IMG/VR virus record: IMGVR_UViG_2721755587_000002
From: a virus
Taxonomy: Duplodnaviria; Caudoviricetes
DNA: 64,000 nt
Reading direction: 5' to 3' (one strand)
Under the pieces are notes generated by a model that worked only from the letters and a program-made list of their open reading frames with translations, was not told where the DNA came from and did no database searches. Shown here one piece after another: positions 9,409 to 64,000 of the stretch; position 1 is the first letter of the stretch; each line of letters starts with the position of its first letter. The position numbers and the translations under genes are program-made.

Positions 9409-10533
9409 ATGGCGAATCTCAACACTCAGTCGTTCGCGCAGATCGTCTCGAACTTCGCCACAGCGGTGCAGGGGCGGGCGTCCAAGCTGGTGGATTTCAC
9501 CATCGGGTCGGTCCTGCGTGCCATCGCGGAGGCGATGGGCGGCGTGTCCCTCTGGCTGCAGGGGCTGGCGCTGCAGGTGGGTGCGCTCACCCGTGCCGCC
9601 ACGTCCAACGGAACCGATCTGGATTCGTGGTTCGCGCAGTTTGGCTTTGCCCGGCTGCCGGCGGTAGCTGCGACCGGGCAAGAATCCTTCGCGCGCTACA
9701 CGCCCACCAACCAGGCGTTGGTCCCGGTGGGGGCGACGGTCCAGACGCAGGACGGTTCAGTCCTGTACACCGTCGTCGCCGACGCCACCAACGCTGCGTA
9801 CAGTGCCGCGCAAGGCGGCTACGTGCTGCCGCCCGGCCAGGCCAGCGTGAATGTGACGGTGCAGTGCACGGTAGCGGGCGCCATCGGAAACGTCTCGGCA
9901 GGCGCGGTGAACACGCTCGGCACGGCCATTTCTGGCGTCGATTACGTCACGAACGCCGCGGCCTTCCAGAATGGCGTGCCGGCAGAAAAGGACGCGCCGG
10001 CGCGCGCCCGGTTCGTGCTGTACATCGCCAGCCTGGAGTCGGCGACGCTGCTGGCCGTCAAGAACGCCATCGCCAGCGTGGGCCTGAACATCACCGGGAT
10101 CATCACCGAGAACCAGCAGTACAACGGCTCGACCCAGAACGGCTATTTCACAGTGATTGCAGACGATGGCACCGGCTATCCGTCCTCAACAACGCTGACC
10201 AACGTCGCCAACGCGGTCGAGGCGGTGCGGCCGCTGTGTTCGACCTACGGGGTGCATGGGCCGACGATCCTCACCGCCGCCGTATCGATGGCGATCACCA
10301 CCGGCACCGGATACACGCACTCTGCGGTGGCCGCGCAGGTCGCCGCCGACCTGCAGGCCTACATCAATGGGCTCGGCGATGGGGTGCAGTTGCCATGGGC
10401 GTACCTGTCCACCGTCGCATTCGACGTGGAAGGCGTCACGAATGTCGCGAACGTGCTGCTCAACGGCGGCACCGCCGATATTGTCCCAACTCCGCAGCAG
10501 CGCGTCCTGGCTGGCGTAATTACGGTGACCTGA
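9409..10533 (+). CDS. Baseplate J/gp47 family protein
   Basis: GSVLRAI, DLD..G..R, GAIGNV motifs; 374 aa. Confidence 0.85.
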   Translation: MANLNTQSFAQIVSNFATAVQGRASKLVDFTIGSVLRAIAEAMGGVSLWLQGLALQVGALTRAATSNGTDLDSWFAQFGFARLPAVAATGQESFARYTPTNQALVPVGATVQTQDGSVLYTVVADATNAAYSAAQGGYVLPPGQASVNVTVQCTVAGAIGNVSAGAVNTLGTAISGVDYVTNAAAFQNGVPAEKDAPARARFVLYIASLESATLLAVKNAIASVGLNITGIITENQQYNGSTQNGYFTVIADDGTGYPSSTTLTNVANAVEAVRPLCSTYGVHGPTILTAAVSMAITTGTGYTHSAVAAQVAADLQAYINGLGDGVQLPWAYLSTVAFDVEGVTNVANVLLNGGTADIVPTPQQRVLAGVITVT

Positions 10534-10534
10534 T

Positions 10535-11218
10535 ATGGCGACTGGTGATTCCGACGACATCCTGTCGCGACTGAAGGCCTACGTGCCCCGCGGCTGGTTC
10601 GGGGGCTGGGCGCAGGCCCCCATCATCACCGCGGTGCTGGGCGGCATCGCATCTGTTCTGGCGGTGTCCTACGCGCTGATCATGTTCTTCTGGGCGCAAA
10701 CGCGCCTGCAGACCTCGACGGGCGGCTGGATCGACATCTGGGCGGCAGATTTTCTCGGAGGGACGCTGCCGCGCAAGCCGAACGAGCTCGATTCCAGCTA
10801 CATCGCGCGCATCCAGGTCGCGATCTTCCAGAAGCGGGCCACGCGGCCGGCCATGATCAGTGTGCTGACGCAGTTGACCGGGCGCGCGCCGATTATTTTC
10901 GAACCGGCCAGGCCACTCGATACCGGCTGCTTCAGCGCGCCCACGTCGCCGGGCTTCTTCGGTGTGGCGCGCTTCGGCTCGATTGCCTGCCCATTCGGCG
11001 CACTCATCACGGCGTACCGGCCACTGGTGGCCGGGGGCTCGGCGGGCGCCGCCTACCGCAACGCTGCGGCCTGGTCCGCATTCAGCACGCCGCTTTCTCA
11101 CGGCTCCTTCGGCTCGCTGTCCGAGCAAACGTCCGTGGCGACCGATGCCGACATTCTGGCGGCCATCAACGCCACGAAGCCCATCGCCACCAATATCGGC
11201 GTGCTCATCTCGAACTAA
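10535..11218 (+). CDS. Baseplate wedge protein (tail protein I-like)
   Basis: TSTGGWID..A.DF...R..NE.D..Y..RI motif; follows J. Confidence 0.7.
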   Translation: MATGDSDDILSRLKAYVPRGWFGGWAQAPIITAVLGGIASVLAVSYALIMFFWAQTRLQTSTGGWIDIWAADFLGGTLPRKPNELDSSYIARIQVAIFQKRATRPAMISVLTQLTGRAPIIFEPARPLDTGCFSAPTSPGFFGVARFGSIACPFGALITAYRPLVAGGSAGAAYRNAAAWSAFSTPLSHGSFGSLSEQTSVATDADILAAINATKPIATNIGVLISN

Positions 11219-11282
11219 CCCTGTTCCTCTCCATCCTTCGAAGGGCCGCCGTGCGCGGCCCTTTCCTATTGAGAATCCCCAT

Positions 11283-13055
11283 ATGCGACGCGTTGAAACG
11301 TATGTAGGCAGCCAGGTGTATGAGTGGTACGACTCTGCGCAGGCCCAGAGCACCATGACGGCGATTGCCAAGGTCTGCGCGGCGATCTTCGGCACCAGCG
11401 CAGTCGCCAACGGCCTTGCATGCACCCCCACGACGCCGGCATCCATAACCGTGCAGATCGGTGCAGGCGAAATCTACCAGGCCGCGCCGCTTGAAGCGAC
11501 TGCCTGCGGCACGCTGCCGGCGAACACGACCTACAGCATCCTCAAGCAGGGCATCCAGCTCGGCACGTACACGACCGGCGCCTTTGCGCTGCCGAGCACC
11601 AGCGGCCAGTCGATCAACTACCTGATCGAGGCGCAGTACCAGGATGCGGACATCAGCCTGGACCCGACCACGGGCACCGCGCCGGTCGTGCTGCAGTTCT
11701 ACAACTCGGCCAATCCGACGCAACCGTGGGCCGGCCCGAACAACACCGGGGCGACCAGCAACACCTTCCGCGACGGTGTGGTGGCCTACCAGGTCAAGGC
11801 GGGCGTCGCCGCGGCGACGGGGTCACAGGTTACGCCGACGCCCGACACGGGCTGGGTCGGCTTGTGGGTGGTCACGGTGCCGTACGGCGCGGCGTCGCTG
11901 ACCAGCGCGAATATTGCGGCCTATCCGGGGGCGCCGGTACTGCCCGGCGGCGTGCTGCAGTCCGCCATCAACGGCAACCTGGTCTATGGGGGCGACAACG
12001 GCTCTGCCAACGTCGTGCAGGCCAGCTTCCCGCTGCCGTCGGCCACGCTCACGGACAATCAGCAGTTCTGGGTCAAGATCAAGGCCGCCAATACAGGGGC
12101 AACGACGTTCACGCCGAATCCTGGTGTGATCAGCCCGGCGCCGGTTGTCGGTGCGGCGCACCAGGCGCTACAAGGAAACGAGCTCGTGGCCAACGGGCGC
12201 GCATTGTTCGTCTGGCGCGCGGACATCAGTTCGTTTGTGTTGTTGGAATGTACCGGCGGCGCACTGCAGGTTGCTGCGGCCGCGCAACCGCAACATGCCG
12301 CCCAGCTCGGCCAGATCGGCCACGGCCAGTGCCGCCTCTCCGTCGTCAGCGGCACGTCGCTGAAGCTGGCGCCGTACAACGGCAACAACCTCGTCATCAA
12401 CGGCGTGCCGCAGCAGGTCTCTGGCGCTGGCGTGACGATTGGCAACGGTGGCCTCGCCGCCTCGACGCTGTATTACGTCTACGCGTACATGAACGCCGGT
12501 GCGATGGCGCTGGAACTGTCGGCCACGGGCCATACGACGGGCTCGACCGGCATCGAGCAGAAGACAGGCGACGCGACGCGGACACTGGTTGGGATGATCT
12601 ACACCAGCGCAGCCACGCCGGGTCAATTCTCCGGCGCGCTGTGCCATAACTTCTTCAACCGTCGGATGTTGACTGGCGACAACATCACCAACGGGTCTCC
12701 GGTCAATTTCACCAATACGAGTGTCGCAGAGGTTACTGCGGCGCTCCGCGTCAGCATGCTGTGCTGGGGCGATGAAGGGTTCTCAGCCGCCTGCAGCGGG
12801 ACGGCATCTGTGGCTACGTCTGGCGGCGTCGGATCGCTGGGCCTGGTCGCCGATGGGATTCAGTTCGGCAGCTACGGAAACTTCGGATTGGCGGGCAGCG
12901 CAATCTTTGCAGAGACTTTCGCCGTCACGGGGGCGAAGACGCTTACAGAAGGTCTCCACATCTTCCAACTATGGGGCGCAGTGACCTCAGGTGGTAGCGC
13001 AGCGCTAGGGGCTAGCAACGGCCAAGTCAACATGTCAGTCACCACGCGAGGTTAA
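11283..13055 (+). CDS. Tail fibre protein
   Basis: ATG 11283; conserved N-terminal anchor, ANTGATT and GHGQCRL modules, variable C-terminus. Confidence 0.8.
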   Translation: MRRVETYVGSQVYEWYDSAQAQSTMTAIAKVCAAIFGTSAVANGLACTPTTPASITVQIGAGEIYQAAPLEATACGTLPANTTYSILKQGIQLGTYTTGAFALPSTSGQSINYLIEAQYQDADISLDPTTGTAPVVLQFYNSANPTQPWAGPNNTGATSNTFRDGVVAYQVKAGVAAATGSQVTPTPDTGWVGLWVVTVPYGAASLTSANIAAYPGAPVLPGGVLQSAINGNLVYGGDNGSANVVQASFPLPSATLTDNQQFWVKIKAANTGATTFTPNPGVISPAPVVGAAHQALQGNELVANGRALFVWRADISSFVLLECTGGALQVAAAAQPQHAAQLGQIGHGQCRLSVVSGTSLKLAPYNGNNLVINGVPQQVSGAGVTIGNGGLAASTLYYVYAYMNAGAMALELSATGHTTGSTGIEQKTGDATRTLVGMIYTSAATPGQFSGALCHNFFNRRMLTGDNITNGSPVNFTNTSVAEVTAALRVSMLCWGDEGFSAACSGTASVATSGGVGSLGLVADGIQFGSYGNFGLAGSAIFAETFAVTGAKTLTEGLHIFQLWGAVTSGGSAALGASNGQVNMSVTTRG

Positions 13056-13057
13056 TC

Positions 13058-13252
13058 ATGGTAACGAGGAAGAGAATCGGATCGAACTTCTTTGCTGATC
13101 TCGTCGCGCATGGGAATCTCGTGGGCCAGCATTTCAGTTGGAGGGCCGACGGGACCATCGAATTCTTCGACGACACGCCCCAAGATGTGGTGGCCGGAGT
13201 GTTGTCGGTATACGATGCACATGTTCCGTCGGACCCTGCTGGACCAGCATAA
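13058..13252 (+). CDS. Small tail-fibre-associated protein/chaperone
   Basis: 64 aa directly after the fibre gene. Confidence 0.55.
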   Translation: MVTRKRIGSNFFADLVAHGNLVGQHFSWRADGTIEFFDDTPQDVVAGVLSVYDAHVPSDPAGPA

Positions 13253-13271
13253 ATGCCGGTAGAATTGGGGT

Positions 13272-14090
13272 ATGAAACCTACTCAATTTCTCGCCGCTGG
13301 CTTCGTGGCTATGACTCTGATCGGAGGCTGCGGCTCTGACCAGAAGGCCGACGCAACGCGGGTTGGCAACGTGTCAACTGCTAGCTACGGGGTTTTGCCA
13401 GGGTCTCCGGCAAAGCCGCTGGCCTTGGTTTTCACCACGGACGTCGCCAATTCGCTGAATGGCACTTTCACGTCAGTCTCGAAGACTTTGCAGGCGGCGG
13501 GTTACACAATCGCCGCTGTCGATGTCACTTGTCACGGTCAAGACCTGCAGGCCGGTGAGACAGCGGGCCTTGGTTGCTGGGCTACTCGCGTTCAGCAAGG
13601 CAATGGCGACATCTTTGCCCCCATGGTTAAACGCGCTTCGGATGCGATCTCTGATCTCGTAGCCAAGGGAGTGGCGAGCGGGGTGGATGTCGTGGCAATC
13701 GGCGTTTCGCGCGGCGGCTATGCTGCCCTTCGCGCGGCTGCCGCGGATTCTCGCATCGGGACGGTGGTCCTCCTGTCGCCGGTGACGGACTTGGCAAGAT
13801 TGACGGAATTCCGTGGCATTGTCGTCGATCAGTCGATGTATGGGCTCGCCAACGACTTTGCAAAGTTTGCCGGTCGTCGCATCTTCATGCAGATCGGAAA
13901 CAGCGACGATCGTGTAGGCACCGCTGAAGCAATCTCCTTCGGCGTAGGTGTCGTAGCTGCGGGGGCCGGTAATCCTGTGGATTTCACCACAATAATCACC
14001 CCGAACAAAGGGCACGGCACCGCGTCGCAGGATATAGCAGCCCAGTGGATTCTGAAGGGGCCTGAGTCAGATTCCGGCAATGCGCCGTAG
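13272..14090 (+). CDS. Lipoprotein alpha/beta-hydrolase (esterase)
   Basis: Lipobox IGGC, nucleophile elbow GVSRGG, GNSDD Asp and KGH His. Confidence 0.75.
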   Translation: MKPTQFLAAGFVAMTLIGGCGSDQKADATRVGNVSTASYGVLPGSPAKPLALVFTTDVANSLNGTFTSVSKTLQAAGYTIAAVDVTCHGQDLQAGETAGLGCWATRVQQGNGDIFAPMVKRASDAISDLVAKGVASGVDVVAIGVSRGGYAALRAAAADSRIGTVVLLSPVTDLARLTEFRGIVVDQSMYGLANDFAKFAGRRIFMQIGNSDDRVGTAEAISFGVGVVAAGAGNPVDFTTIITPNKGHGTASQDIAAQWILKGPESDSGNAP

Positions 14091-54986: not shown

Positions 54987-55805
54987 TCAGCAATCGGTCT
55001 TGATGGCGTCGCCGCTGCCGCCGGTGGCGGGGGGGCGGCGGGCGAAGGTTTCGGCTTTGTCGAGCGAGCTCTTCAGGGCTGTGAAGGCTTCTTTGTCCTT
55101 GTCCTGGCTCGTCTTGAGTTGGGCGAGCTGCTGGTTGATGCCATCGATGGCGGTGGAGAACTGTTCGCCAAGTGCCTGCAGTTGCTGAGCGATGGTTTGC
55201 ACGGCTTCTTGCATGTCGGCGTTTCCGGCATCGGTTTCCTGCTGTCTGGCGAACAGCTTCTTGATGCTGGCCGCGAATCCGGGCTTTACAGCCGCGGTGG
55301 TCTGCGCGGGTTCGAACTCGAGGGAGACCTCGACGGCCTCGGAGAAGAGGTTGTCCGGCTCCTGCTTGCGTTCGGCCAGCGGGTTCTGTTTCGCCTTGGC
55401 GCTGAATTGCAGCATCTCGCATCCGAGGCTGGCGGGGTTGTCGGTGACGGCCAGGCCGACCAGGTAGGCTTCGCCGGTGTCGGCGAAGTTGGGTTGGATC
55501 TCCATGGAGCAGTAGATTTTCTGGCGTGCCTTGTTGAGCGCCACCAGCTCAGAGGTTGGGTCGATCTGCGCATACAGGCCGAGTTTGCCGTCCTCTTCCT
55601 CGGTCTTGAGCGCGATCACGTCGCCGTAGGCTCTGAACGGGCCAGTGGGGTCATAGCCGCGGATGTGCTCCAGGTTGACGCGTGCGCCGTAGGTCTTGGG
55701 ATCGTAGCTGGCAGCCATCTGCAGCAGCATGTTGCGGTCAATCGTGCGGCCATCGCTGGTTGCGCCTTCGGTAGCGATGCGGAAAAACTTGGTCTTGGCG
55801 GCCAT
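54987..55805 (-). CDS. gpO: Capsid scaffolding/protease gpO
   Basis: FRIATEGAT.DGR, GLAVTD.PASLG, ends TDC. Confidence 0.93.
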   Translation of the reverse strand: MAAKTKFFRIATEGATSDGRTIDRNMLLQMAASYDPKTYGARVNLEHIRGYDPTGPFRAYGDVIALKTEEEDGKLGLYAQIDPTSELVALNKARQKIYCSMEIQPNFADTGEAYLVGLAVTDNPASLGCEMLQFSAKAKQNPLAERKQEPDNLFSEAVEVSLEFEPAQTTAAVKPGFAASIKKLFARQQETDAGNADMQEAVQTIAQQLQALGEQFSTAIDGINQQLAQLKTSQDKDKEAFTALKSSLDKAETFARRPPATGGSGDAIKTDC

Positions 55806-55879
55806 GGTGTCCTCGTGTTTGGCGATGCGTCGTGGTGATGCCATCTTCTGCGGCGGGGCACGCGCGGGCAATGTCGGGG

Positions 55880-55904
55880 TGTTGTGAGCTGGCCGTACAC
55901 AACA
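55880..55904. promoter_or_regulatory. Ogr-type late promoter element (divergent O/P)
   Basis: TGTTGT-N13-ACAACA. Confidence 0.8.
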
Positions 55905-55947
55905 TGGGCGGCGTGGCACGCGCGCGCGCGGCGGGTAGCGTGGCGGC

Positions 55948-57726
55948 ATGGATACGCAAGCCCTCTTAACAGTCCCTGTCGAAGCGGTGATGGACCCTCG
56001 CCGGCGCGCTCGGGCGCTCTACTGGCAGGGCTATCGCATTGCGCGCATCGCCGAGATGCTGGGCATCACCGCAGCCACGGTCTACAGTTGGAAGCGGCGC
56101 GACGCGTGGGATGCGGCGGACCCGGTGGAGCGGGTGAGCACCTGCATCGAAGCGCGCATGGCACAGCTGATCGCCAAGGAAGCGAAAGAGGGGAAGGACT
56201 TCAAGGAGATCGACCTGCTGGGCCGGCAGATGGAGCGACTGGCGCGCGTGCGGCGGTACGAGGTCAGCCGAAATGAGGCGGACCTGAACCCGAACGTGGC
56301 GAACCGGAACAAGGGTCCGAGAAAGGCGCCGGAGCGCAATGCGGTCAGCGAGGAACAGCAGACGCAGTTGCAGGATGCGTTCATGGATTCGCTCTTCGGC
56401 TACCAGAAGCGCTGGTACGAGGCGGGGCTGACCGAGCGCATCCGCAATATCCTCAAGAGCCGGCAGATCGGGGCCACATGGTACTTCGCGCGGGAGGCCT
56501 TCATCGACGCGCTGACCACGGGGCGCAACCAGGTCTTCCTGTCGGCCAGTAAGGCGCAGGCGCACGTCTTCAAGCAGTACATCATCCAGTTCGCCCGCGA
56601 CGCCGCGGGCGTTGAGCTACGGGGCGATCCCATCGTGCTGCCGAATGGCGCCACGCTGTACTTCCTCGGGACCAATGCACGCACGGCGCAGAGCTATCAC
56701 GGCAATCTTTACGTGGACGAGTACTTCTGGATTCAGCGCTTCCAGGAGCTGCGGAAGGTGGCGTCTGGCATGGCGATTCATGCCAGGTGGAGGCAAACCT
56801 ATTTCTCGACGCCGTCCAGTCTGGCGCATGAGGCTTATCCGTTTTGGTCCGGCGCGCTGTTCAATCGCGGTCGGAAGAAGGAGGCGCGGGTACAGGTCGA
56901 TATCGACCATGCCAGCCTGCAGCATGGCAAGCGGTGCGGAGATGGACAGTGGCGTCAGATTGTTACCGTGGAAGATGCCGTGCGTGGTGGTTGCAACCTG
57001 TTCGACCTGGACCAGCTCCGCCTCGAATACAGCGACGCCGATTTCGAGAACCTGCTGATGTGCGGGTTCATCGATGACAACGCCTCCGTCTTCCCGCTCT
57101 CGGTGATGATGCGTTGCATGGTCGATAGCTGGGAGGTGTGGGAAGACTTCCGGCACTGGTCGCCACGGCCGTTCGGCAACCGCGAGGTGTGGGTGGGCTA
57201 CGACCCGAACGGCGGTGGTGGCGACAGCGCCGCGCTAGTTGTCGTGGCGCCGCCGCTGGTGGCCGGTGGCAAGTTCCGCGTACTGGAGAAGCATCAGTTC
57301 CGCGGCATTGACTACGAAGAGCAGGCTGCCGCAATCCAGCGCGTGACCGAGCGCTACAACGTGAGCTACATCGGCATTGACCGTACTGGTATCGGCGATG
57401 CCGTGTTCAAGCTGGCGCAGAAGTTCTTTCCCGGAGCGGAGGGCTTCACGTATTCGGTCGACGTCAAGACTGGCCTGGTGCTCAAGGCGAACGACGTCAT
57501 CAGCAAGGGCCGGTTGGAATACGACGCCGGCTGGACCGACTTCGCCGCGTCCTTCATGTCCATCAAGAAGACCACCACCGCCGCCGGCGGCCGGGTCACG
57601 TACCAGGCCGGCCGCTCGGAGGAAACCAGCCACGCGGATCTCGCGTGGGCCTGCATGCATGCGCTTTCGCACGAACCCATCGAAGGCGTCACCACCACCA
57701 ATTCCAGCATCATGGAGCTGTCATGA
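55948..57726 (+). CDS. gpP: Terminase ATPase subunit gpP
   Basis: LYWQG, LKSRQIGATW, YVDEYFW, HADLAWA. Confidence 0.95.
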   Translation: MDTQALLTVPVEAVMDPRRRARALYWQGYRIARIAEMLGITAATVYSWKRRDAWDAADPVERVSTCIEARMAQLIAKEAKEGKDFKEIDLLGRQMERLARVRRYEVSRNEADLNPNVANRNKGPRKAPERNAVSEEQQTQLQDAFMDSLFGYQKRWYEAGLTERIRNILKSRQIGATWYFAREAFIDALTTGRNQVFLSASKAQAHVFKQYIIQFARDAAGVELRGDPIVLPNGATLYFLGTNARTAQSYHGNLYVDEYFWIQRFQELRKVASGMAIHARWRQTYFSTPSSLAHEAYPFWSGALFNRGRKKEARVQVDIDHASLQHGKRCGDGQWRQIVTVEDAVRGGCNLFDLDQLRLEYSDADFENLLMCGFIDDNASVFPLSVMMRCMVDSWEVWEDFRHWSPRPFGNREVWVGYDPNGGGGDSAALVVVAPPLVAGGKFRVLEKHQFRGIDYEEQAAAIQRVTERYNVSYIGIDRTGIGDAVFKLAQKFFPGAEGFTYSVDVKTGLVLKANDVISKGRLEYDAGWTDFAASFMSIKKTTTAAGGRVTYQAGRSEETSHADLAWACMHALSHEPIEGVTTTNSSIMELS

Positions 57727-58778
57727 GTCGAAGAAAGTCGCCACGCGGCGCACGCGCAACGAACCCAGCCGAGGCGCATGCAGCGCCTGCCGCCTCTGCT
57801 GAGGCGTTCAGCTTTGGCGATCCCATCGCCGTGCTCGACCGGCGCGAGCTGTTGGACTATGTGGAGTGCCAGCGCATGGGGAAATGGTATGAGCCACCTA
57901 TGTCGTGGGATGGTCTGGCGCGGTCGTTCCGCGCGGCCGTGCATCACAGCTCGCCCATCTATGTGAAGCGCAACATCCTGGTATCCACCTTCGTGCCGCA
58001 CAAGCTGCTGTCACGCTCGGCGTTCGCGCGCTGGGTGCTGGACTTTCTCATCTTCGGCAACGCGTACCTCGAACGGCGCGACAACGTGCTGGGCCGCCCC
58101 GTCAGCCTGGAGCCCGCGCTGGCGAAGTACATGCGCCGCGGCATTGACCTGGCCAGCTACTGGTGGGTGCAAAACTGGCAGCAGCCGCATGAGTTCAGGC
58201 CGGGCAGCGTCTTCCATTTGCTCGAGCCGGACATCAACCAGGAGGTGTATGGCTTGCCCGAGTATCTCTCTGCGCTCAATGCCACCTGGCTGAACGAATC
58301 GGCCACGCTGTTCCGCCGCCGCTACTACAAGAACGGTAGCCACGCCGGCTTCATCCTGTACATGACGGACGCCGCGCAGAAGCAGGAAGACGTCGATACG
58401 CTTCGCCAGGCGCTCAAGGACAGCAAGGGGCCGGGGAATTTCCGGAACCTGTTCATGTACGCGCCAAATGGGAAGAAGGACGGCATCCAGCTGTTGCCGG
58501 TGTCGGAAGTGGCGGCCAAGGATGAATTCTGGAACGTGAAGAACATTACGCGCGATGATCAGTTGTCCGCGCATCGCGTGCCGCCGCAACTGATTGGGAT
58601 CATTCCACACAACACCGGTGGGTTCGGGGATGCGGCGAAGGCGGCGGAGGTCTTCGCGTGCAATGAGGTGAAGCCTTTGCAGAACCGGCTGATGGAGGTC
58701 AACGAATGGCTTGGTGCGGAGGTGGTGCGCTTTGATGCCTACAGCCTTTGCAATGAGGTGGGAGGCCCACTACCGTGA
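57723..58778 (+). CDS. gpQ: Portal protein gpQ
   Basis: FSFGDP, YGLPEY, YKNGSHAGFI, AHRVPP. Confidence 0.95.
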   Translation: MSRRKSPRGARATNPAEAHAAPAASAEAFSFGDPIAVLDRRELLDYVECQRMGKWYEPPMSWDGLARSFRAAVHHSSPIYVKRNILVSTFVPHKLLSRSAFARWVLDFLIFGNAYLERRDNVLGRPVSLEPALAKYMRRGIDLASYWWVQNWQQPHEFRPGSVFHLLEPDINQEVYGLPEYLSALNATWLNESATLFRRRYYKNGSHAGFILYMTDAAQKQEDVDTLRQALKDSKGPGNFRNLFMYAPNGKKDGIQLLPVSEVAAKDEFWNVKNITRDDQLSAHRVPPQLIGIIPHNTGGFGDAAKAAEVFACNEVKPLQNRLMEVNEWLGAEVVRFDAYSLCNEVGGPLP

Positions 58779-58963
58779 GCCAACTCAGGAATGCCTGAAT
58801 CGACAGCGCCGTGGGCGACAAGGTGATATCGGCCGAGCTATAAAAAGGGTTCAGCGTGTGGGGGGAACCAATTTTGGCCATTTACAGACTGTCGCCAGAT
58901 CGGCCAATTTTCGGCCTAAGCAGACGGGCGGCGGCCTAACGGCGCTCGCATAGCGGCCGAATA

Positions 58964-59923
58964 TCACGCAAGTTCGGGCCTCAACCGGGTGGGCTCCTTT
59001 GCCTGCCACCAATCAGCAAAGCCGCGGGCTGAAAACGTGGATCGTCGTCCGTTAGGAAAGACCGTAGAAGGCGCATAGCGACAAATCAAATATACAAGCT
59101 CCGGCACGCTCCAGACTTGAACGCCGAGTCGCTGGCATTCGGCTTTTGACTCTTCGCTCAGGCGATACGTCGTGACCAGTACCAACTGCAATGGCGTCAG
59201 CATCTGGATGCCAAAACTTCTCCAGTGACCGCTCTCGCTTCTCTGGATGAGCCAACTACCAACTAACTCCCGTATGTGCGCTGGGTTGATTACTTTCAAG
59301 TTATCAGGGTCAGAACCAATCGCGGCTTTCGACGACGCGACGACCATGACGCGATGGCCGGGTCGAATGACCTTGTCACCAATGAGGCCATCTAGAAATG
59401 CGTCCTCAATGTGGATCAGTTGATTCCATGCGATGGCGTCTACCCCTTGATCTCCAGAGCCCTTCGTAGCTTCGCCGTAGTGACATGCGGCAGACAAAAT
59501 GGCAGCGGCCACAACTTCAAGCTTGTGGCCCTGGTCAAGTTGCAGCAGCTCTCGGCGAATGGCGCGATGCCTCCCTATCCGGGTCAGGAAGTCGGCGGGG
59601 TAGTCTGAAGGCAGTCCTTTAAGCCTCAGGTATGTGGAGATCCCAGAAATAAACGTCCGATTCTGGGGCTTTCTGTGAAAGATGATGAAGGAGGGGACCT
59701 CGCCTTTGTCCCGAAGCAATTCGTCGCGCGCGCAGGTGAGACGGCCGACGGTCACTGCTCCAGTTCCGGTTAAATCTGGGTCGGGAAATACGCCTGCCCG
59801 TTGGATTGCATTTAGACCCAAAACGTCCCCAAAAAAGTCTTCGATGGACTTTTCCGGCGCATCAAAGTCAAGCGCACAGGCGTGATTAATCACTCGCCGA
59901 ATATCCGCACTAGTCAAGGTCAT
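58964..59923 (-). CDS. Mrr-like restriction endonuclease-fold protein
   Basis: LE...A.IL, T.GSGDQGVDAIA, IRELVGS, LVTT..LS..S...GVQVW...EL. Confidence 0.7.
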   Translation of the reverse strand: MTLTSADIRRVINHACALDFDAPEKSIEDFFGDVLGLNAIQRAGVFPDPDLTGTGAVTVGRLTCARDELLRDKGEVPSFIIFHRKPQNRTFISGISTYLRLKGLPSDYPADFLTRIGRHRAIRRELLQLDQGHKLEVVAAAILSAACHYGEATKGSGDQGVDAIAWNQLIHIEDAFLDGLIGDKVIRPGHRVMVVASSKAAIGSDPDNLKVINPAHIRELVGSWLIQRSESGHWRSFGIQMLTPLQLVLVTTYRLSEESKAECQRLGVQVWSVPELVYLICRYAPSTVFPNGRRSTFSARGFADWWQAKEPTRLRPELA

Positions 59924-59924
59924 C

Positions 59925-61241
59925 TTATTCGCCGGACAACGCCTTTATCATGGACAGCATTTTTGTGACCTGCTTGTGCAATTCTAATAGCCTTGCTTCA
60001 GTCTCTGGCGAGTCAGTAAGGTCTTCTGTGGTCGTTCGCTTCAGCGTTCTAGTGAAACTAGCAATCTTCTTGGGTAATGCACCTTCTTTCCGCTCCTCAA
60101 ACAAAATCTCAGCGGACTTGAAGTCGCGGTCGAGCAACGACTCCACAATAGTCGGGTCTTCCAATCTGAGCATGTCGCGAAGCCTGCGAACAGCCATTTC
60201 GGCTGACAGTTCCGGCACGAGGTCATCATCGGTATCCTCACTGCTGGATGATGCGCCTCTAAGTCTGGTAATCAGATAATGGAAAAAGGCATCCTCATTT
60301 TCCCGATTTAGATATTGCATCTCATCGGCCGACCACTCGAGCCATTGAGATATTACAGGTGCCCGGGCAGCTTCTGCGAATGCGTTGTAGGTAAGCGAGT
60401 GCTCAATGGAATTTGCGCGCTCGAACTTTACAAAGTCATGATACAAAACGTGGGCTTTAAGATCGCGAAGGACTTCAGCTTTTTTTCGGCCAAATCGCTC
60501 GGCGACATCCGATGCACTCCAGCCCTCATCAAAGATGAGTCTCGACTGGAATTCATACCTGCTTGCTGGCTCCCAGCTCTTGGCACCCATGAGATGCCGC
60601 ATGCCAATATAAATTTCAGATGCCCGCCGATATGCCGCTAACTGCTGCGTTGATGTACCAATTACAGATCCCTTTAGAACGAAGCAGGGAAGGGTTTGGA
60701 GCGACTCGCGCACAGTTGGGCGCAGCTTCTGAAGAGTGGGTCCATTCTCCTCGAGAAGTCTGCGTACAGCCGTTACCCGTCTGTTACCTTCAAGGACGAG
60801 GAACTTCTCTCCGTCATATCTGGCGACAATTAGGCGTTCATGCTTCAGAAATCCGTTATTTGCAATTGAGGCTGCCAGCGAGCCGATATCGAATCGGGGA
60901 TCGCTGTTGATGACGTCGAATAGCTTCTTCTGGATTGAAGGCTGTCCATAGAGTTTAAGTTCCAAATTCTGGAAAGTTTCACCCACTCGTTCGAGTAACC
61001 GGAGGTTATCGGGGTCAAGAAGCAGTCGCGATGGTTCGATCTCCAGGGAGTCGCCTTCGGGAAGGTCCAGAACGGGCCCTTGGCTGCTTTTGTTTTCCTC
61101 TTCTCGAGGGAGGTCTGCTTTGCTAGTGCGCTTTCGTCCTGTCTTAGCCGTTGGTCTTGACTTCGCAGCTACTTTGGTAGCAGCAGGCGAAGGCCTACGG
61201 GTTGTTGCTGCTGTCTTTTTCGCGGCTGCGCTTGTAGTCAT
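59925..61241 (-). CDS. ParB/Srx-like N-terminal domain protein with HTH
   Basis: LLLDPDN.R, LAASIANNGF, VLEGNRRVTAV; basic disordered N-terminus; low GC. Confidence 0.75.
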   Translation of the reverse strand: MTTSAAAKKTAATTRRPSPAATKVAAKSRPTAKTGRKRTSKADLPREEENKSSQGPVLDLPEGDSLEIEPSRLLLDPDNLRLLERVGETFQNLELKLYGQPSIQKKLFDVINSDPRFDIGSLAASIANNGFLKHERLIVARYDGEKFLVLEGNRRVTAVRRLLEENGPTLQKLRPTVRESLQTLPCFVLKGSVIGTSTQQLAAYRRASEIYIGMRHLMGAKSWEPASRYEFQSRLIFDEGWSASDVAERFGRKKAEVLRDLKAHVLYHDFVKFERANSIEHSLTYNAFAEAARAPVISQWLEWSADEMQYLNRENEDAFFHYLITRLRGASSSSEDTDDDLVPELSAEMAVRRLRDMLRLEDPTIVESLLDRDFKSAEILFEERKEGALPKKIASFTRTLKRTTTEDLTDSPETEARLLELHKQVTKMLSMIKALSGE

Positions 61242-61498
61242 TGGAAAACGTTCTCTAAATTTGGGACGGTTACGCCGCACTGTAAAGCTTTTTCGCGATT
61301 CCGCCAATTCTATCTTCCTTAGCCTGCCAAGCCGAAGTTCATCGCCAGAGATGGCCCCGTGCGTACAGTGCACCTGCTATACCCATGCTTCATAGCGCCG
61401 ATGGCCTTTGTGCCCGTCCTCGCTGCGCAAAGGGTCCCTGTTCGGAATTTCATATCGTGAAATTCCAAGGGCGTGGCTGATTGCGGTCTCCGCGCGCG

Positions 61499-61517
61499 GT
61501 TGAGACCCCGCCTCGCC
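61499..61517 (-). other. cos site (P2-type 19-nt cohesive end)
   Basis: Minus strand GGCGAGGCGGGGTCTCAAC; first 12 nt equal P2 cos GGCGAGGCGGGG. Confidence 0.8.
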
Positions 61518-61709
61518 GGCCCACTTTATCGAGTTCCTTTTCTGCAGGTGCACACAGACCGGTGGCGCCGGCCAGAGCGAGCGGAGCGGTTGAGGACGGA
61601 TCTCGCCAATTCATGCAGATTTATGCGCATAAAGGCACATCGAGCCTGTCAGCCAGGGAGCGAACGGGGCGGTTACCGCTGCGCCAGGAAGTTGAGATCC
61701 AGGGCCGCC

Positions 61710-62004
61710 TCCGGAAAAAGGTAACTTCGCTAACCGCCCCCGAAAATCGCATCTAAGTACTTGATTTGTAAGGGGTGGATGGTTACCTTCGGAAGGTAAT
61801 CCGGGGTAACCAAGAAGGTAACCTACTTCTAAGTAGTTGATTTTATTGAAGGTCGGGTAAGAGGGAAATTACTCTTCAAGAAGGTAACTAATTACCTCCA
61901 GGTTACCCCGAAGTTACCTTCAGCCAGAAAGCTGGAATCCGTTGTCTGGTAAGGCTTTCCGCGATATTCCGTGCGTCAAGTTACTGAGGTTACCTTTTTC
62001 CGGA
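61710..62004. repeat. Iteron array (GGTAAY/RTTACC) with 16-bp terminal IR and two IHF-consensus sites; putative replication origin
   Basis: TCCGGAAAAAGGTAAC...GTTACCTTTTTCCGGA; about 10 hexamers; TAAnnnnTTGATT at 61754 and 61830. Confidence 0.75.
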
Positions 62005-62109
62005 CCCCTGCCCGACTTTAGCGAAGCTGCCGTTATGTGCATTACCGAACACACCCATCAGACACTCTGATGTCTACTTCGCTAGGTGTTCATGCCTTGG
62101 AGAGGCCTC

Positions 62110-62526
62110 ATGGCAACGTCCCGATTCTGTTGTCTCTTTGGTGCGGGGCTGCTTTCTGCGTGCTGTACAGTTCAGCCCCAACAGCAACCGATGGTCACAA
62201 AGCCCTTGAGTGATGTTCTTAAGCAGATCAGCACGCAGATTGCAGAGGCCCGCGCGGCTGAATGTGAAAAACATCAGAGGCTTGGCGTCTACCTTAGTGA
62301 TATCGAACTCACCCTAGGGCTGACGGTCGAAGATAAGGTTGCCGGTGGCATCTCGGTCACTTTCCCGGTAATCGGACAGTTGGCACCATCGGGAACGTTT
62401 GATAGAAGCAAGACAACAACTGCAGGCAACACCCTAGTCATCAAATTCGCAAGCATCAAGGCACCAAAATCGGGGGATCCATGCGACCCTAACAGTACGG
62501 CCCTGAACAAGTCCGTACTGCAATAG
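62110..62526 (+). CDS. Lipoprotein with Trypco2-like domain
   Basis: LSAC lipobox; LSDVL..I...I....IELTLGLTV...GGI...TLVIKF. Confidence 0.6.
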   Translation: MATSRFCCLFGAGLLSACCTVQPQQQPMVTKPLSDVLKQISTQIAEARAAECEKHQRLGVYLSDIELTLGLTVEDKVAGGISVTFPVIGQLAPSGTFDRSKTTTAGNTLVIKFASIKAPKSGDPCDPNSTALNKSVLQ

Positions 62527-62686
62527 CGCTCAGAACAACTGTGATGATCCTGGACTGTTGCGCTAGGAGCGGGGCGGGCATGTAGAGATCTCATTCGCTC
62601 CTCCAGACGCTCAATGTCCGCAATGCGGATTTCCCCTTCGGCTCCGCATGCGATACGTAAGTGCTTGATACTTAGTGCTTCACGCT

Positions 62687-62703
62687 TCCCCTCCCTCGCA
62701 CCA
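62687..62703 (+). repeat. att core copy 2 (attR of prophage 2)
   Basis: TCCCCTCCCTCGCACCA; IHF-consensus at 62658-62670. Confidence 0.9.
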
Positions 62704-62797
62704 TTTCCAGGGCTTTCCGGTACTGCCGAAAGCCTTGAAAAACAAGGGCTTACCGGTAATTCGACTCGGTAGGTTCTTTCTGTTTCTGTCTAGTCCT

Positions 62798-62825
62798 TTC
62801 ACCCAGTTCACCCAAAATTCACCCA
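62798..62825 (+). repeat. TTCACCCA x3; probable arm sites of a third element
   Basis: Seen directly, about 100 bp right of att, 9-11 bp spacing. Confidence 0.55.
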
Positions 62826-62900
62826 CGGTCAGGTTGCCCGCCTGAACTGTTGCGCAGGCCTTGGATTAATCCCCGCTGGAGACGTTGAGTTGGATTCGCC

Positions 62901-63557
62901 TCACAATGCTTTTGGGGCACGTGGCGCAGGCTCCGCATCCATCAACTCCGCCGGGTAGGGCCTCATGAAACTCCGTGCCCGCTCAGTATCCCGGCAACGC
63001 AGCCAGTCATCCCACTGCGTCCGCGGCACGATGACGATCATCCGTTTTTCCTTGCCTGGGGCATGGAAGCGGTTCATCAGCGGGTGCTTGTCCGAGTTGA
63101 TGGTCAGCATGGTGAAGCTGAACAACTCGGCGCCTGCCTCGCTCGGCCACGCCCGCCACAAGCCAGCGATCGCGAAGTCAGGCTGGTCCTTGAGCCAGAT
63201 GCGCCAGCGCACGGACTTGGGCTTCTCCTGATCGGGGTCGTAGAAGGGTTCGTAGAAGCTCGTGGCCGGCACCAGGCAGAGCTGGCCCTTCTTCCACGGC
63301 CCCGAGAACGACCGCTTCTCGCCGACCGTCTCCGATCGCGCGTTGGTGGTGTCAAACTTGGCCACGCCCGGCGGGATGCGGGTCTTGGGTACCATGCCGA
63401 ACGTGCCCACCAGCGCCTGGCGGCTGCCTTCGCTGTCGGCCACGATCAGCGGCGCGGCATAGTCCGGCCATGTCTCCGGCGGGTAATCCATCGGCGGCTC
63501 GATGCCGTAGACGTCGCGCAGCAATTGCCGCTGGACCGGGGCGTAGTTATTGCACAT
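62901..63557 (-). CDS. SRAP/YedK family protein, second copy
   Basis: MCNNY, NARSET; near-identical protein to 24670-25311. Confidence 0.92.
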   Translation of the reverse strand: MCNNYAPVQRQLLRDVYGIEPPMDYPPETWPDYAAPLIVADSEGSRQALVGTFGMVPKTRIPPGVAKFDTTNARSETVGEKRSFSGPWKKGQLCLVPATSFYEPFYDPDQEKPKSVRWRIWLKDQPDFAIAGLWRAWPSEAGAELFSFTMLTINSDKHPLMNRFHAPGKEKRMIVIVPRTQWDDWLRCRDTERARSFMRPYPAELMDAEPAPRAPKAL

Positions 63558-63739
63558 CGCTCTTGACTCACGCTATGCGCGCCGAAATAGTCCCTCTGCG
63601 CCTGGAGGGCGGCGTTGTCGGCCGTTGCTTGTAATAACTCTTGCTAGGGACGACATCCCTTTAGCCATCTCAATGGCTGCTTTTGCGAGTGTGAATGCTG
63701 CAACTACGTCCACGGTGCCTCCTGTTGGCGCCGCGTGCG

Positions 63740-64000
63740 CTATCCGCCGCGGTTCTGGGTGCGCTGTCGAGTGTAAACGCTCTGCATGGCTGGTCCGAAG
63801 AACTCTTCTTCCCAAGCCTCCCGTTCCTCGATGCAGGGTTCGCCACGGATCTCGGCCCGAAAAGTCTCTAGGATCTGCGCGTGCGACATGTGGCAGCCCC
63901 CGCCGTATGCTTTCTGCAACTTGTTGGCGCGCAGCTCGGCGGCCGTGCGCTTCGGATACAGGCACCGGCCGTCCGGGCCGATAGGGAACTCGGGTGCCAT
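63740..64000 (-). CDS. Hypothetical protein (may start beyond window)
   Basis: ORF reaches the window edge. Confidence 0.4.
   Translation of the reverse strand: MAPEFPIGPDGRCLYPKRTAAELRANKLQKAYGGGCHMSHAQILETFRAEIRGEPCIEEREAWEEEFFGPAMQSVYTRQRTQNRGG

Follow-up and report, generated by a model that had tools for sequence, protein, structure and literature searches.

The present study examines a two-gene cassette carried by a P2-like prophage within a 64-kb stretch of viral DNA (64,000 nucleotides, here called the window). It is on balance probable that this pair, a candidate anti-phage cassette lodged in the slot between cos and the portal gene, combines a nucleotide-switched DNA sensor with a nuclease that the sensor licenses for defence. 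Gene 1 (59925–61241, minus strand) encodes a ParB-like switch or sensor protein of 438 aa counted from ATG, with TTG and GTG start alternatives upstream and a database call of 460 aa. Gene 2 (58964–59923, minus strand) encodes a candidate nuclease effector of 319 aa. A single base (59924, minus strand; TAA-g-ATG) separates the stop of gene 1 from the start of gene 2, which suggests operon organisation and translational coupling; at homologous loci the corresponding genes are similarly close, either overlapping or separated by a few bases.

The position and composition of the pair are those of cargo. Portal gene Q of the prophage (57723–58778, plus strand; Pfam Phage_portal E=3e-14) is convergent with gene 2 across 186 bp, and the GC content of the two genes is 0.49–0.56 versus 0.61–0.70 in the structural genes. 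At the other end the slot is bordered by a P2-type cos-like motif (61499–61517, minus strand). This motif consists of the 12-mer GGCGAGGCGGGG (61506–61517, minus strand), which occurs once in the window and is identical to bases 1–12 of the cohesive end opening the linear record of the P2-like phage L-413C, followed by GCGCGC, also similar to the L-413C cohesive end. Since the 12-mer matches that cohesive end, the gene pair sits between cos and Q; coordinates, GC content and cos match thus all agree with the original prediction, made from the sequence alone, of a lower-GC pair 1 nt apart, opposite to Q and just inside cos. Megablast matched 138 phage records, and in the Ralstonia ones listed among them homology ends at about 58730–58740 of the window, at the 3′ end of the portal gene. 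The related phages RSY1 and RsoM1USA lack the pair and have other cargo in the slot, in RSY1 a VgrG/DUF3274 cargo. The pair therefore has the features by which cargo of the cos-portal hotspot is recognised, namely a place between Q and cos, foreign composition, and a slot whose contents vary among related phages. The cos-proximal region of P2 is a published defence hotspot (PMC9122126, PMC9519451), as the prediction had held. The far border of the slot is undefined because tblastn over a further 18 kb past the window found no homologue of P2 gpA.

A motif screen of 55000–64000 found no methyltransferase-like ORF of at least 180 aa, and Pfam scans of five flanking ORFs (57723–58778 and four within 61450–63557) found no methyltransferase, so that the predicted lack of an accompanying methylase stands. 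No ParA-type gene was present among the scanned neighbours of the pair loci. An array of GGTAAC/GTTACC repeats next to cos (61671–62004) was considered as a parS-like site of gene 1 and rejected, there being no such array at 15 other pair loci.

The gene 1 protein begins with a basic tail (residues 1–55), of which residues 1–53 are disordered in the AF2 model (pLDDT 79.7) and residues 1–41 contain 12 K/R and no acidic residues; a basic tail had been foreseen, and it lies at the N-terminus. Structure prediction and fold search place a ParB-CTPase-fold domain at residues 64–221, followed by a ParB-type HTH (about 222–313) and long C-terminal helices (347–435). The domain carries a Box I-like motif, DPDNLR (76–81; D76, N79, R81), and a Box II in which the ParB GERR has become GNRR (G152–R155), within EGNRR (151–155). 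Both DPDNLR and EGNRR are invariant or nearly so in 38 homologues, across which GNRR itself does not vary. With VIA-align the predicted structure matched M. xanthus ParB-CTPgammaS (7bnr; Z 9.8, rmsd 2.7, 96 aligned, 21% identity), PadC (Z 9.3) and Caulobacter ParB (7bm8; Z 9.2). Full-length structural matches to Noc, KorB and pNOB8 ParB had Z 8.1–8.6 (Noc 7nfu, Z 8.6 over 203 aa; KorB 8qa9, Z 8.1 over 192 aa), the HTH matched that of SopB at Z 6.2, and Foldseek gave probability 1.00 for KorB, ParB and Noc. In canonical ParB, Noc and KorB clamps, as in gene 1, the HTH directly follows the N-domain. At the sequence level the relationship is faint: there was no Pfam match at E≤1, ParB_N (PF02195) included, searches of the gene 1 and gene 2 profiles against PDB sequences gave nothing significant, and weak, sub-threshold HMM alignments set GNRR on the GERR of M. 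xanthus ParB (per-domain E 30) and the HTH on the ParB HTH (per-domain E 110). PF02195 does have a precomputed match in two gene 1 homologues and occurs in 12–63% of the members of atlas neighbours. The predicted structure and the fold searches confirm that gene 1 belongs to the ParB/Srx (ParB-CTPase fold) superfamily, and the ParB/Srx-like core and HTH proposed from the letters alone are thereby upheld.

ParB-type CTP switches are the clamps of chromosome and plasmid segregation, and ParB mutants show that the Box II glutamate is needed for CTP hydrolysis. Because gene 1 has asparagine at this position, its switch may bind nucleotide without hydrolysing it, or may use another nucleotide. Gene 1 may bind NTP and act as a clamp.

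The gene 2 protein was modelled with higher confidence (AF2 pLDDT 90.7, pTM 0.89). Residues 1–100 form a winged-helix domain with wHTH fold matches at Z of about 5, and residues from about 115 to 317 are predicted to form an Mrr/MspJI-type PD-(D/E)xK endonuclease domain. In the VIA-align wide search the best relatives were the catalytic domain of MspJI (Z 11.8, 162 aligned), AF1548 (Z 11.4), AspBHI (Z 10.0) and the FokI cleavage domain (Z 9.4). The GDQGVDA motif, which had been read as Mrr-type from sequence, is at 157–163 and is invariant or nearly so in 40 homologues; E136, D158, D162 and K199 are invariant in the same set, S197 is invariant as well, and the domain also has R218-E219. The Pfam Mrr_cat model gave E=0.0028 and 18.2 bits, under the cut-off of 21, and hhalign aligned gene 2 with partners of related ParB-like proteins that do pass Mrr_cat (27.1–37.7 bits) over 264 columns at 99.1% (E 6e-19). 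The family departs from these partners at the catalytic (E/Q)xK position, where gene 2 and its homologues have the invariant S197 and 40 of the 42 related Mrr_cat partners have Q. Gene 2 is thus a predicted nuclease whose activity, judged from its residues, is not guaranteed, given SxK in place of (E/Q)xK. Neither Pfam nor the fold search detected an SRA-like or Mrr_N domain. We infer that gene 2 cleaves DNA.

Linkage of the two genes is strict. The prediction depended on their being conserved as a pair, and at each of the 17 loci examined gene 1 is followed directly by gene 2 in the same orientation. These loci extend beyond Pseudomonadota to Verrucomicrobiota, Planctomycetota and Acidobacteriota. 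The matrices of sequence identity for gene 1 and for gene 2 correlate (r=0.88), a value that none of 5000 permutations reached. Measured against the Ralstonia copy, dN is 0.17–0.22, and dN/dS was not computable because synonymous sites are saturated. The tight family was found in 13 of 185,579 species genomes, covering at least five phyla, and in none of the IMG/VR viral contigs; among 300 genomes of the source's own family a close copy was present only in the source genome, and two others have distant relatives (E 1.7e-35 and 4e-12). Such a patchy and rare distribution is typical of mobile defence genes, and the pair has spread horizontally.

Neighbourhoods were compared, with ORF calls made on each locus, in a small sample of 15 separate loci other than the window's own, 13 of which came from the genome scan and the remaining two of which are L001 and L004. 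The enrichment in defence islands that would be expected of a defence system was not evident there: mobile or defence-like neighbours occurred at 4 of the 15 loci, and the rest had housekeeping neighbours, most of the 13 genomic copies being isolated among housekeeping genes. The four comprise an island with integrase, IS and RT (L004), a locus with integrase and HNH (L007), one with IS200 (L017), and one with a D12 (Dam-type) adenine methylase directly upstream (L013), the last being the exception to the absence of an adjacent methyltransferase at the other 14. In Pseudomonas, Methylomonas, Opitutaceae and Lacunisphaera the pair is in chromosomes without phage genes nearby. Gene 1 of Methylomonas fluvii has a nonsense codon and a frameshift and is followed by an intact gene 2, and a Planctomycetaceae MAG likewise retains an intact gene 2 beside a damaged gene 1. 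The M. fluvii case suggests that the nuclease by itself may be tolerated, and it fits gene 1 as activator or sensor and not as antitoxin.

In the reading we prefer, the pair would be a self-contained, horizontally mobile two-gene cassette for DNA-targeting immunity or exclusion, carried as cargo by a P2-like prophage. Gene 1 would use its HTH and basic tail to bind DNA, would dimerise or clamp through the ParB N-domain when nucleotide-bound, and would thus act as both sensor and licensing factor. Gene 2, with its winged helix and Mrr-type endonuclease domain, would be the effector that cuts DNA once gene 1 recruits or activates it, and the two proteins would be expected to interact physically. 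Since no methyltransferase goes with the pair, discrimination of foreign DNA would probably be Type IV-like, through a modification or structural feature of the invading DNA, or else triggered by infection. We infer an anti-phage role from this combination of features. Several observations weigh against that role: chromosomal copies are mostly outside defence islands, the tight family is missing from IMG/VR viral contigs, both proteins have substitutions at key motifs (SxK in gene 2, Box II N for E in gene 1), and PADLOC system models are silent on the pair. If true, the coupling of a ParB-like protein to a restriction-type nuclease would represent recruitment of the segregation switch into immunity, and the pair would be a compact two-gene system for dissecting clamp loading, nucleotide state and nuclease licensing.

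A narrower, Type IV version of this model, in which modified bases are recognised by the winged helix of gene 2 or by gene 1 and only modified invading DNA is cut, seems unlikely as the specific form. It is consistent with the best fold matches, MspJI and AspBHI, both modification-dependent, with the Mrr-like architecture of wHTH plus Mrr_cat, with the absence of a methyltransferase, and with the precedent of GmrSD, SspE and BrxU, in which ParB-superfamily NTPase domains are coupled to nucleases (PMC12065111). The fold match, however, involves catalytic domains only, neither an SRA-like nor an Mrr_N domain was detected, and the ParB domain of gene 1 is of the canonical GxRR type and not DUF262. 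The same structural relatives argue against a classical restriction-modification system in which the pair would supply the restriction part and a distant region of the genome the methyltransferase, since MspJI, AspBHI and Mrr all depend on modification. A mobile two-gene cassette reliant on an unlinked methylase would also be lethal on transfer, and there is no methyltransferase beside the pair in the window or at 14 of the 15 other loci; this explanation is highly improbable, even though a C5 methyltransferase is adjacent to the sibling module of the E. coli P2-like phage vB_EcoM-12474III, the arrangement DNA_methylase + hypothetical + ParBc is in the tables of Rousset et al., and the D12 adenine methylase directly upstream at L013 points in its direction.

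An addiction-type explanation must also be considered, in which the nuclease is a constitutive toxin restrained by the ParB-like protein, and prophage loss, or phage-induced loss of the gene 1 product, frees it and kills the cell. Such a toxin-antitoxin or abortive module would be consistent with a tightly coupled two-gene operon with the nuclease second, and with a scattered spread like that of selfish elements, as single cassettes between housekeeping genes. It appears improbable, however, because M. fluvii and the Planctomycetaceae MAG keep gene 2 without an intact gene 1, which should be lethal if gene 1 were the antitoxin and gene 2 is expressed there, and because gene 1 has a full sensor-type architecture of NTP-switch fold, HTH and basic tail and is not a small neutraliser. 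Alternatively, the pair may serve the phage itself, by degrading or remodelling host or competitor DNA in lytic growth or by ParB-type handling of the prophage genome near cos. Its position adjoining cos and the packaging genes, the recurrence of ParB-like genes beside P2-like portals, and the published remark that prophages carry many ParB-fold proteins to which no role has been assigned (PMC12704722) are compatible with such a function, but this would not account for copies in chromosomes with no phage genes nearby, for RSY1 and RsoM1USA doing without the pair and carrying other cargo instead, for the low GC that marks foreign cargo, or for the repeat array near cos not accompanying the pair elsewhere. 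A phage-serving function is accordingly quite improbable.

Comparison with known systems lowers the novelty of the pair. It matches no named system; gene 1 is homologous to the N-terminal half of PDC-M38A, and a sibling arrangement with ParBc had already been listed. The pair triggers no system model in PADLOC and gene 2 matches nothing, with gene 1 matching PDC-M38A and PD-Lambda-5_A at the domain level only. In PDC-M38, a predicted candidate system in PADLOC, positions 15–361 of the 715 of PDC-M38A align with residues 71–431 of gene 1 (E=2e-30), the full proteins have the same N-terminal ParB-like, HTH and helical module, and the modules are also convergent on P2-like portal genes. PDC-M38A however continues into an ABC-type ATPase half (AAA_21/AAA_15, AbiLi/AriA-like) that gene 1 lacks, with no ATPase gene adjacent to the pair, and gene 2 shows no relationship to PDC-M38B, a DUF3226-like protein (hhalign 0.1%, no PADLOC match). 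The pair was thus judged not to be PDC-M38, since only the N-terminal module matches and both the ATPase and the M38B partner are absent. PD-lambda-5 is described, in Vassallo et al. 2022 (PMC9519451), as a compact, prophage-borne RM+Abi system with an N-terminal ParB-like domain. Only this ParB N-domain aligns with gene 1 (profile positions about 30–210 of about 470), the methyltransferase domain is absent from the pair, and PADLOC found no match to PD-Lambda-5_B in either gene; this identity was likewise rejected, the ParB N-domain being all that is common to both.

Alike in logic are GmrSD, BrxU, SspE and Menshen NsnA, in which a ParB-superfamily NTPase sensor with a DNA-binding domain is likewise joined to a nuclease effector and no cognate methylase is involved (PMC12065111). 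These belong to the DUF262 (DGxQR) branch, whereas gene 1 is of the canonical GxRR ParB type (GNRR), and their effectors are HNH/DUF1524 or other, mostly fused or accompanied by an ABC ATPase, whereas the nuclease of the pair is separate and Mrr-type. PADLOC models for GmrSD, SspE, BrxU and Nsn matched neither protein at E≤1. Mrr, MspJI and AspBHI resemble gene 2 in the fold of the catalytic domain (Z 10–11.8), and Mrr also in its wHTH-plus-nuclease layout, but gene 2 differs in having SxK for QxK, no SRA or Mrr_N domain, and an obligatory ParB-like partner gene. The lactococcal AbiR, an Abi system known from experiment, combines the ParB-like AbiRii with AbiRiii, a restriction-endonuclease/Snf2 protein (PMC13064643). 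The likeness to the pair, a ParB-like protein with a restriction-type nuclease, is by description only, and AbiR differs in being methylase-dependent and in having three genes, whose products include a protein resembling sigma-70 and an Snf2 helicase.

The P2 hotspot itself contains a related module, ParB-N + hypothetical (+ C5 methyltransferase), exemplified by gp04–06 of vB_EcoM-12474III (E. coli) and p40 of L-413C (Yersinia), and an arrangement of DNA_methylase + hypothetical + ParBc was already listed in the hotspot tables of Rousset et al. 2022. Its ParB-like protein is of the same superfamily as gene 1, matching the A3 profile over its full length, and the module also occupies a cargo slot beside cos and portal, in the E. 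coli phages on the gpA side of cos. The partner protein weakly resembles gene 2 in the PD-(D/E)xK core (hhalign 67%) but is of a different family with no Pfam or PADLOC match, and a methyltransferase was flagged by a crude motif screen at 9 of 54 loci, versus none with the window pair. The possibility that the "RM-like" construct pFR107 of Rousset et al. represents this ParBc arrangement was not confirmed; the one methylase sequence compared differs.

A profile search extended the family of the ParB-like protein to 2,172 representatives. Partners included canonical Mrr_cat nucleases (class dc1; 42 loci in metagenomes and viral contigs), an unknown partner protein (54 loci), a fused ABC ATPase with PDC-M38B (28 loci) and ion channels (3 loci). 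The dc1 pairs have the same two-gene order and tight spacing as the window pair; their ParB-like proteins have the DPxNxR, EGNRR and RH motifs in common with gene 1, and their nucleases are the gene 2 homologues aligned above. The two subfamilies nevertheless have low sequence identity (gene 1 profile E about 1e-33), and the dc1 nucleases have canonical QxK, compared with the invariant SxK and an extra loop in the gene 2 subfamily. It is possible, and we put it forward tentatively while leaning against it, that ParB-CTPase-fold proteins of the GNRR branch serve as general immune sensors, nucleotide-switched DNA clamps that survey DNA and license interchangeable effectors, in modules that P2-like phages trade at the cos-portal slot. 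Their effectors would then comprise Mrr-type nucleases, a second nuclease-like family, the ABC ATPase + DUF3226 of PDC-M38, and ion channels, and the window pair would represent, without a methylase, the minimal version of a new defence class built on the chromosome-segregation switch. Relatives that are coupled to no fewer than three further kinds of partner, and that recur in the phage defence hotspot studied best, would, if this is true, carry the same implication of a segregation switch recruited into immunity. Roles of ParB-type switches on mobile elements are only beginning to be surveyed (PMC12704722), and the pair with its roughly 2,000 relatives was missed as a system by the Pfam and PADLOC models tried.

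At viral loci of the wider family a P2-like portal was found within the 6-kb flank in 48 of 78 cases, at distances of between 13 bp and about 3.2 kb. Eight PDC-M38 modules are convergent on the portal at 13–57 bp, the orientation of the gene pair. Relatives of about 715 aa were considered as fusions of gene 1 to gene 2 and rejected, their C-terminal half being an ABC ATPase. One ORF of 631 aa is matched by the ParB-like profile as well as by that of the nuclease and may be a fusion.

The two genes lie on the minus strand of the P2-like prophage, gene 1, the ParB-like gene, at 59925-61241 (438 aa counted from ATG) and gene 2, the Mrr-like nuclease gene, at 58964-59923 (319 aa), and ORF listing and translation agree on a spacer of one base, reading TAA-g-ATG. 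The one-base gap, the lower GC of the pair (0.49-0.56 vs 0.61-0.70 in the adjoining structural genes) and every motif quoted in the original prediction were found as described. Capsid, scaffold, large terminase and portal genes are upstream on the plus strand. Among the matches listed from 138 matching phage records, the closest were Ralstonia RSY1-like (76% nucleotide), and in the listed Ralstonia records the match ended at about 58733, at the portal 3' end. A cos-like 12-mer, GGCGAGGCGGGG, occurs once in the window, at 61506-61517. Because it matches exactly the opening 12 bases of the cohesive end with which the record of P2-like phage L-413C begins, and Q, the portal gene, comes next there on the other strand, just as in the window, the pair sits between cos and Q, just inside cos as had been proposed.

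Gene 1 was without a Pfam or NCBIfam match, and its domains were assigned from an AlphaFold2 model built on an alignment of 38 homologues (pLDDT 79.7). The predicted basic tail exists and is placed at the N-terminus (disordered residues 1-53), followed by an alpha/beta domain (64-221), a helical HTH region (about 222-313) and long C-terminal helices (347-435). The expected ParB-like core and HTH were borne out by Foldseek and VIA-align, in which the model resembled ParB, Noc, KorB and PadC; the top match was M. xanthus ParB-CTPgammaS (Z 9.8, rmsd 2.7, 96 residues), and Noc, KorB and pNOB8 ParB matched at Z 8.1-8.6, spanning both domains. In weak, sub-threshold profile alignments (per-domain E 30 and 110), G152-N-R-R155 aligned to ParB G-E-R-R and residues about 225-262 to the ParB HTH. 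Residues D76, N79, R81, H134, E135, D143, E151, G152, R154 and R155 were invariant or nearly so. ParB mutants at the M. xanthus E93 position bind CTP and hydrolyze it poorly. Gene 1 N153 aligns to this residue, which is the one mutated in PDB entry 7o0n. For gene 2, a sub-threshold Mrr_cat hit was the sole Pfam signal, and the Mrr-type call is upheld by a confident model (pLDDT 90.7, pTM 0.89), of which residues about 115-317 matched the catalytic domains of MspJI (Z 11.8), AF1548 (Z 11.4), AspBHI (Z 10.0) and FokI (Z 9.4) in an all-against-all structural search and residues 1-100 matched winged-helix domains (Z about 5). Invariant residues were E136, D158, D162, S197, K199 and R218/E219, with S instead of Q in the QxK motif in 40/40 sequences of this subfamily.

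Word-indexed searches returned about 134 gene 1 and 105 gene 2 clusters, dozens of which come from contigs of matching size. The pairing is conserved: in all 17 cases, drawn from two contigs and 13 loci of a one-genome-per-species scan, a gene 2 homologue was directly downstream of the gene 1 homologue on the same strand. Between loci, the identities of the gene 1 proteins track those of the gene 2 proteins (r=0.88; 0/5000 permutations equally high), a pattern of co-inheritance that does not necessarily imply contact. The tight family is rare, present in 13 of 185,579 species genomes, and of 300 genomes from the family to which the host belongs, this one alone had a close copy, two others having distant relatives (E 1.7e-35 and 4e-12). 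Hosts include Pseudomonas, Ralstonia, Methylomonas, Thiobacillus and Ideonella, as well as Opitutaceae and other Verrucomicrobiota, Planctomycetaceae, Pyrinomonadaceae and Fimbriimonadaceae, and none of the IMG/VR viral contigs searched carried a tight-family copy. Neighbors were mostly housekeeping genes; the mobile or defense-like minority included an integrase/IS/resolvase/RT island in R. pseudosolanacearum, an integrase and HNH gene in Thiobacillus, IS200 and, at one locus, a Dam-type methylase. A role of the pair in phage housekeeping is weakened by the many chromosomal copies without a phage.

Three copies are damaged. In Methylomonas fluvii EbB (L010, a fetched locus, 9947-12193) the gene 1 orthologue has an in-frame stop (10409-10411) and then a frameshift. 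Its gene 2 orthologue, which shares 75% identity with that of the window, is intact, so the sensor seems to have decayed naturally and the nuclease to have been retained. Gene 1 is split in a Planctomycetaceae MAG and gene 2 in Ideonella. That some genomes retain gene 2 next to a broken gene 1 weakens the explanation that the two form a toxin-antitoxin module. On balance, the pair is probably a two-component DNA-targeting immunity cassette, in which the ParB-like protein would bind DNA, change state with nucleotide and recruit or activate the wHTH-Mrr nuclease. With a methylase absent and gene 2 akin to MspJI, AspBHI and Mrr, a modification-dependent (Type IV-like) trigger is a reasonable candidate sub-hypothesis, of lower probability.

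In PADLOC, gene 1 matched the candidate-system component PDC-M38A (E=2e-30) over profile positions 15-361 of 715 only, and many PD-Lambda-5_A models in the ParB N-domain only; gene 2 had no meaningful match in the same scan. Relatives of gene 1 of about 715 aa are true PDC-M38A (E about 1e-250); in their C-terminal half they carry an AAA_21/AAA_15 ABC ATPase that is unrelated to gene 2. PD-lambda-5, which the literature presents as a compact RM+Abi system that includes a methyltransferase (PMC9519451), was therefore ruled out as the identity of the pair. A ParB-like plus Mrr pair was not found described as a system in the literature. The closest functional logic is in the Menshen analysis and in the GmrSD, SspE and BrxU work summarized there, where a ParB-superfamily NTPase together with a DNA-binding domain does the sensing and a nuclease is the effector, but in the DUF262 branch (PMC12065111); in Lactococcus, AbiR joins a ParB-like protein to a nuclease/helicase of restriction type (PMC13064643). 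A survey of ParB-CTPases reported many orphan, prophage-borne ParB-fold proteins of varying nucleotide specificity, using Pfam PF02195 at gathering score (PMC12704722), and gene 1 is below that score. The components belong to familiar types, and existing catalogues or predictions already include sibling arrangements.

The interest is more in the family picture than in the single locus, with one ParB-switch module, at least four partner types and recurrence at the P2 cargo slot. Searching in full with a HMMER profile of the gene 1 family gave 2,172 representatives at E<=1e-3, the tight group and then many proteins of about 365 and 715 aa. The alignment of the 365-aa group, which retains LLDPNNYR, EGNRR and RH..G.K.W, was used to scan viral and metagenome contigs, yielding 160 loci at which downstream same-strand ORFs were clustered into partner classes. 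Class dc1 (42 loci) passes Pfam Mrr_cat, shares homology with gene 2 across 264 columns (hhalign 99.1%, E 6e-19) and has the canonical E..D.G.D..QxK; dc0 (54 loci) is a 294-382-aa family of unknown kind weakly matching the gene 2 catalytic core (67%); dc2 (28 loci) is PDC-M38B, after a fused ParB-ATPase; and dc3 (3 loci) comprises Ion_trans_2 channel proteins. At the dc3-type metagenome loci L137, L155 and L176 a protein of about 375 aa follows the ParB-like gene at 0 to -3 bp, which suggests a membrane effector replacing the nuclease. One 631-aa ORF (L124 5938-7833, metagenome contig Ga0105055_10000573) matches both ParB-like and nuclease profiles and may be a natural fusion of the components. 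By a crude motif screen, methyltransferases appear to adjoin a minority of wider-family loci only.

That the gpA-cos-gpQ region is a defense hotspot, as the original prediction held, was established by Rousset et al. (PMC9122126) and by Vassallo et al. (PMC9519451), and 'DNA_methylase + hypothetical + ParBc' is among the P2 hotspot arrangements listed in the former. In 48 of 78 scorable wider-family viral loci (dc0 37/54; PDC-M38 9/14), the 6-kb flank contained a portal gene 60-72% identical to that of the window, at a distance of 13 bp to about 3.2 kb. Eight PDC-M38 modules converge on the portal 13-57 bp from its stop; the window's pair is likewise convergent on Q (57723-58778, plus strand), 186 bp away. 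E. coli phage vB_EcoM-12474III has the order Q, ParB-N protein, hypothetical, C5 methyltransferase, DUF3850, A, and in Yersinia phage L-413C the right end carries a related gene.

Where the window has the ParB-Mrr pair, the slot downstream of the RSY1 portal (L005 16922-23544) has type VI secretion-like toxin cargo, namely VgrG, two hypothetical proteins and a DUF3274 protein. Just past cos, a 146-aa plus-strand ORF (62086-62526) with a lipoprotein-like signal (LSAC) matches Pfam Trypco2 (27.2 bits vs cut-off 24.2). This domain is associated with conflict systems, and the ORF may be a second cargo gene of the same slot. A dense GGTAAC/GTTACC array at 61671-62004 (9 units in one 500-bp bin vs about 0.16 expected) probably belongs to the phage and not the cassette, because it did not accompany the pair in 15 other loci. 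The prophage replication module may differ from that of P2, since tblastn found no gpA homologue in the 18 kb beyond the window (L185, G000:C1:1818000-1836000), a locus with an 899-aa minus-strand ORF at 10708-13407. GC is back to phage level at 62901-63557 (minus strand), the site of an SRAP (SOS-response-associated peptidase) gene (Pfam E=3e-30).
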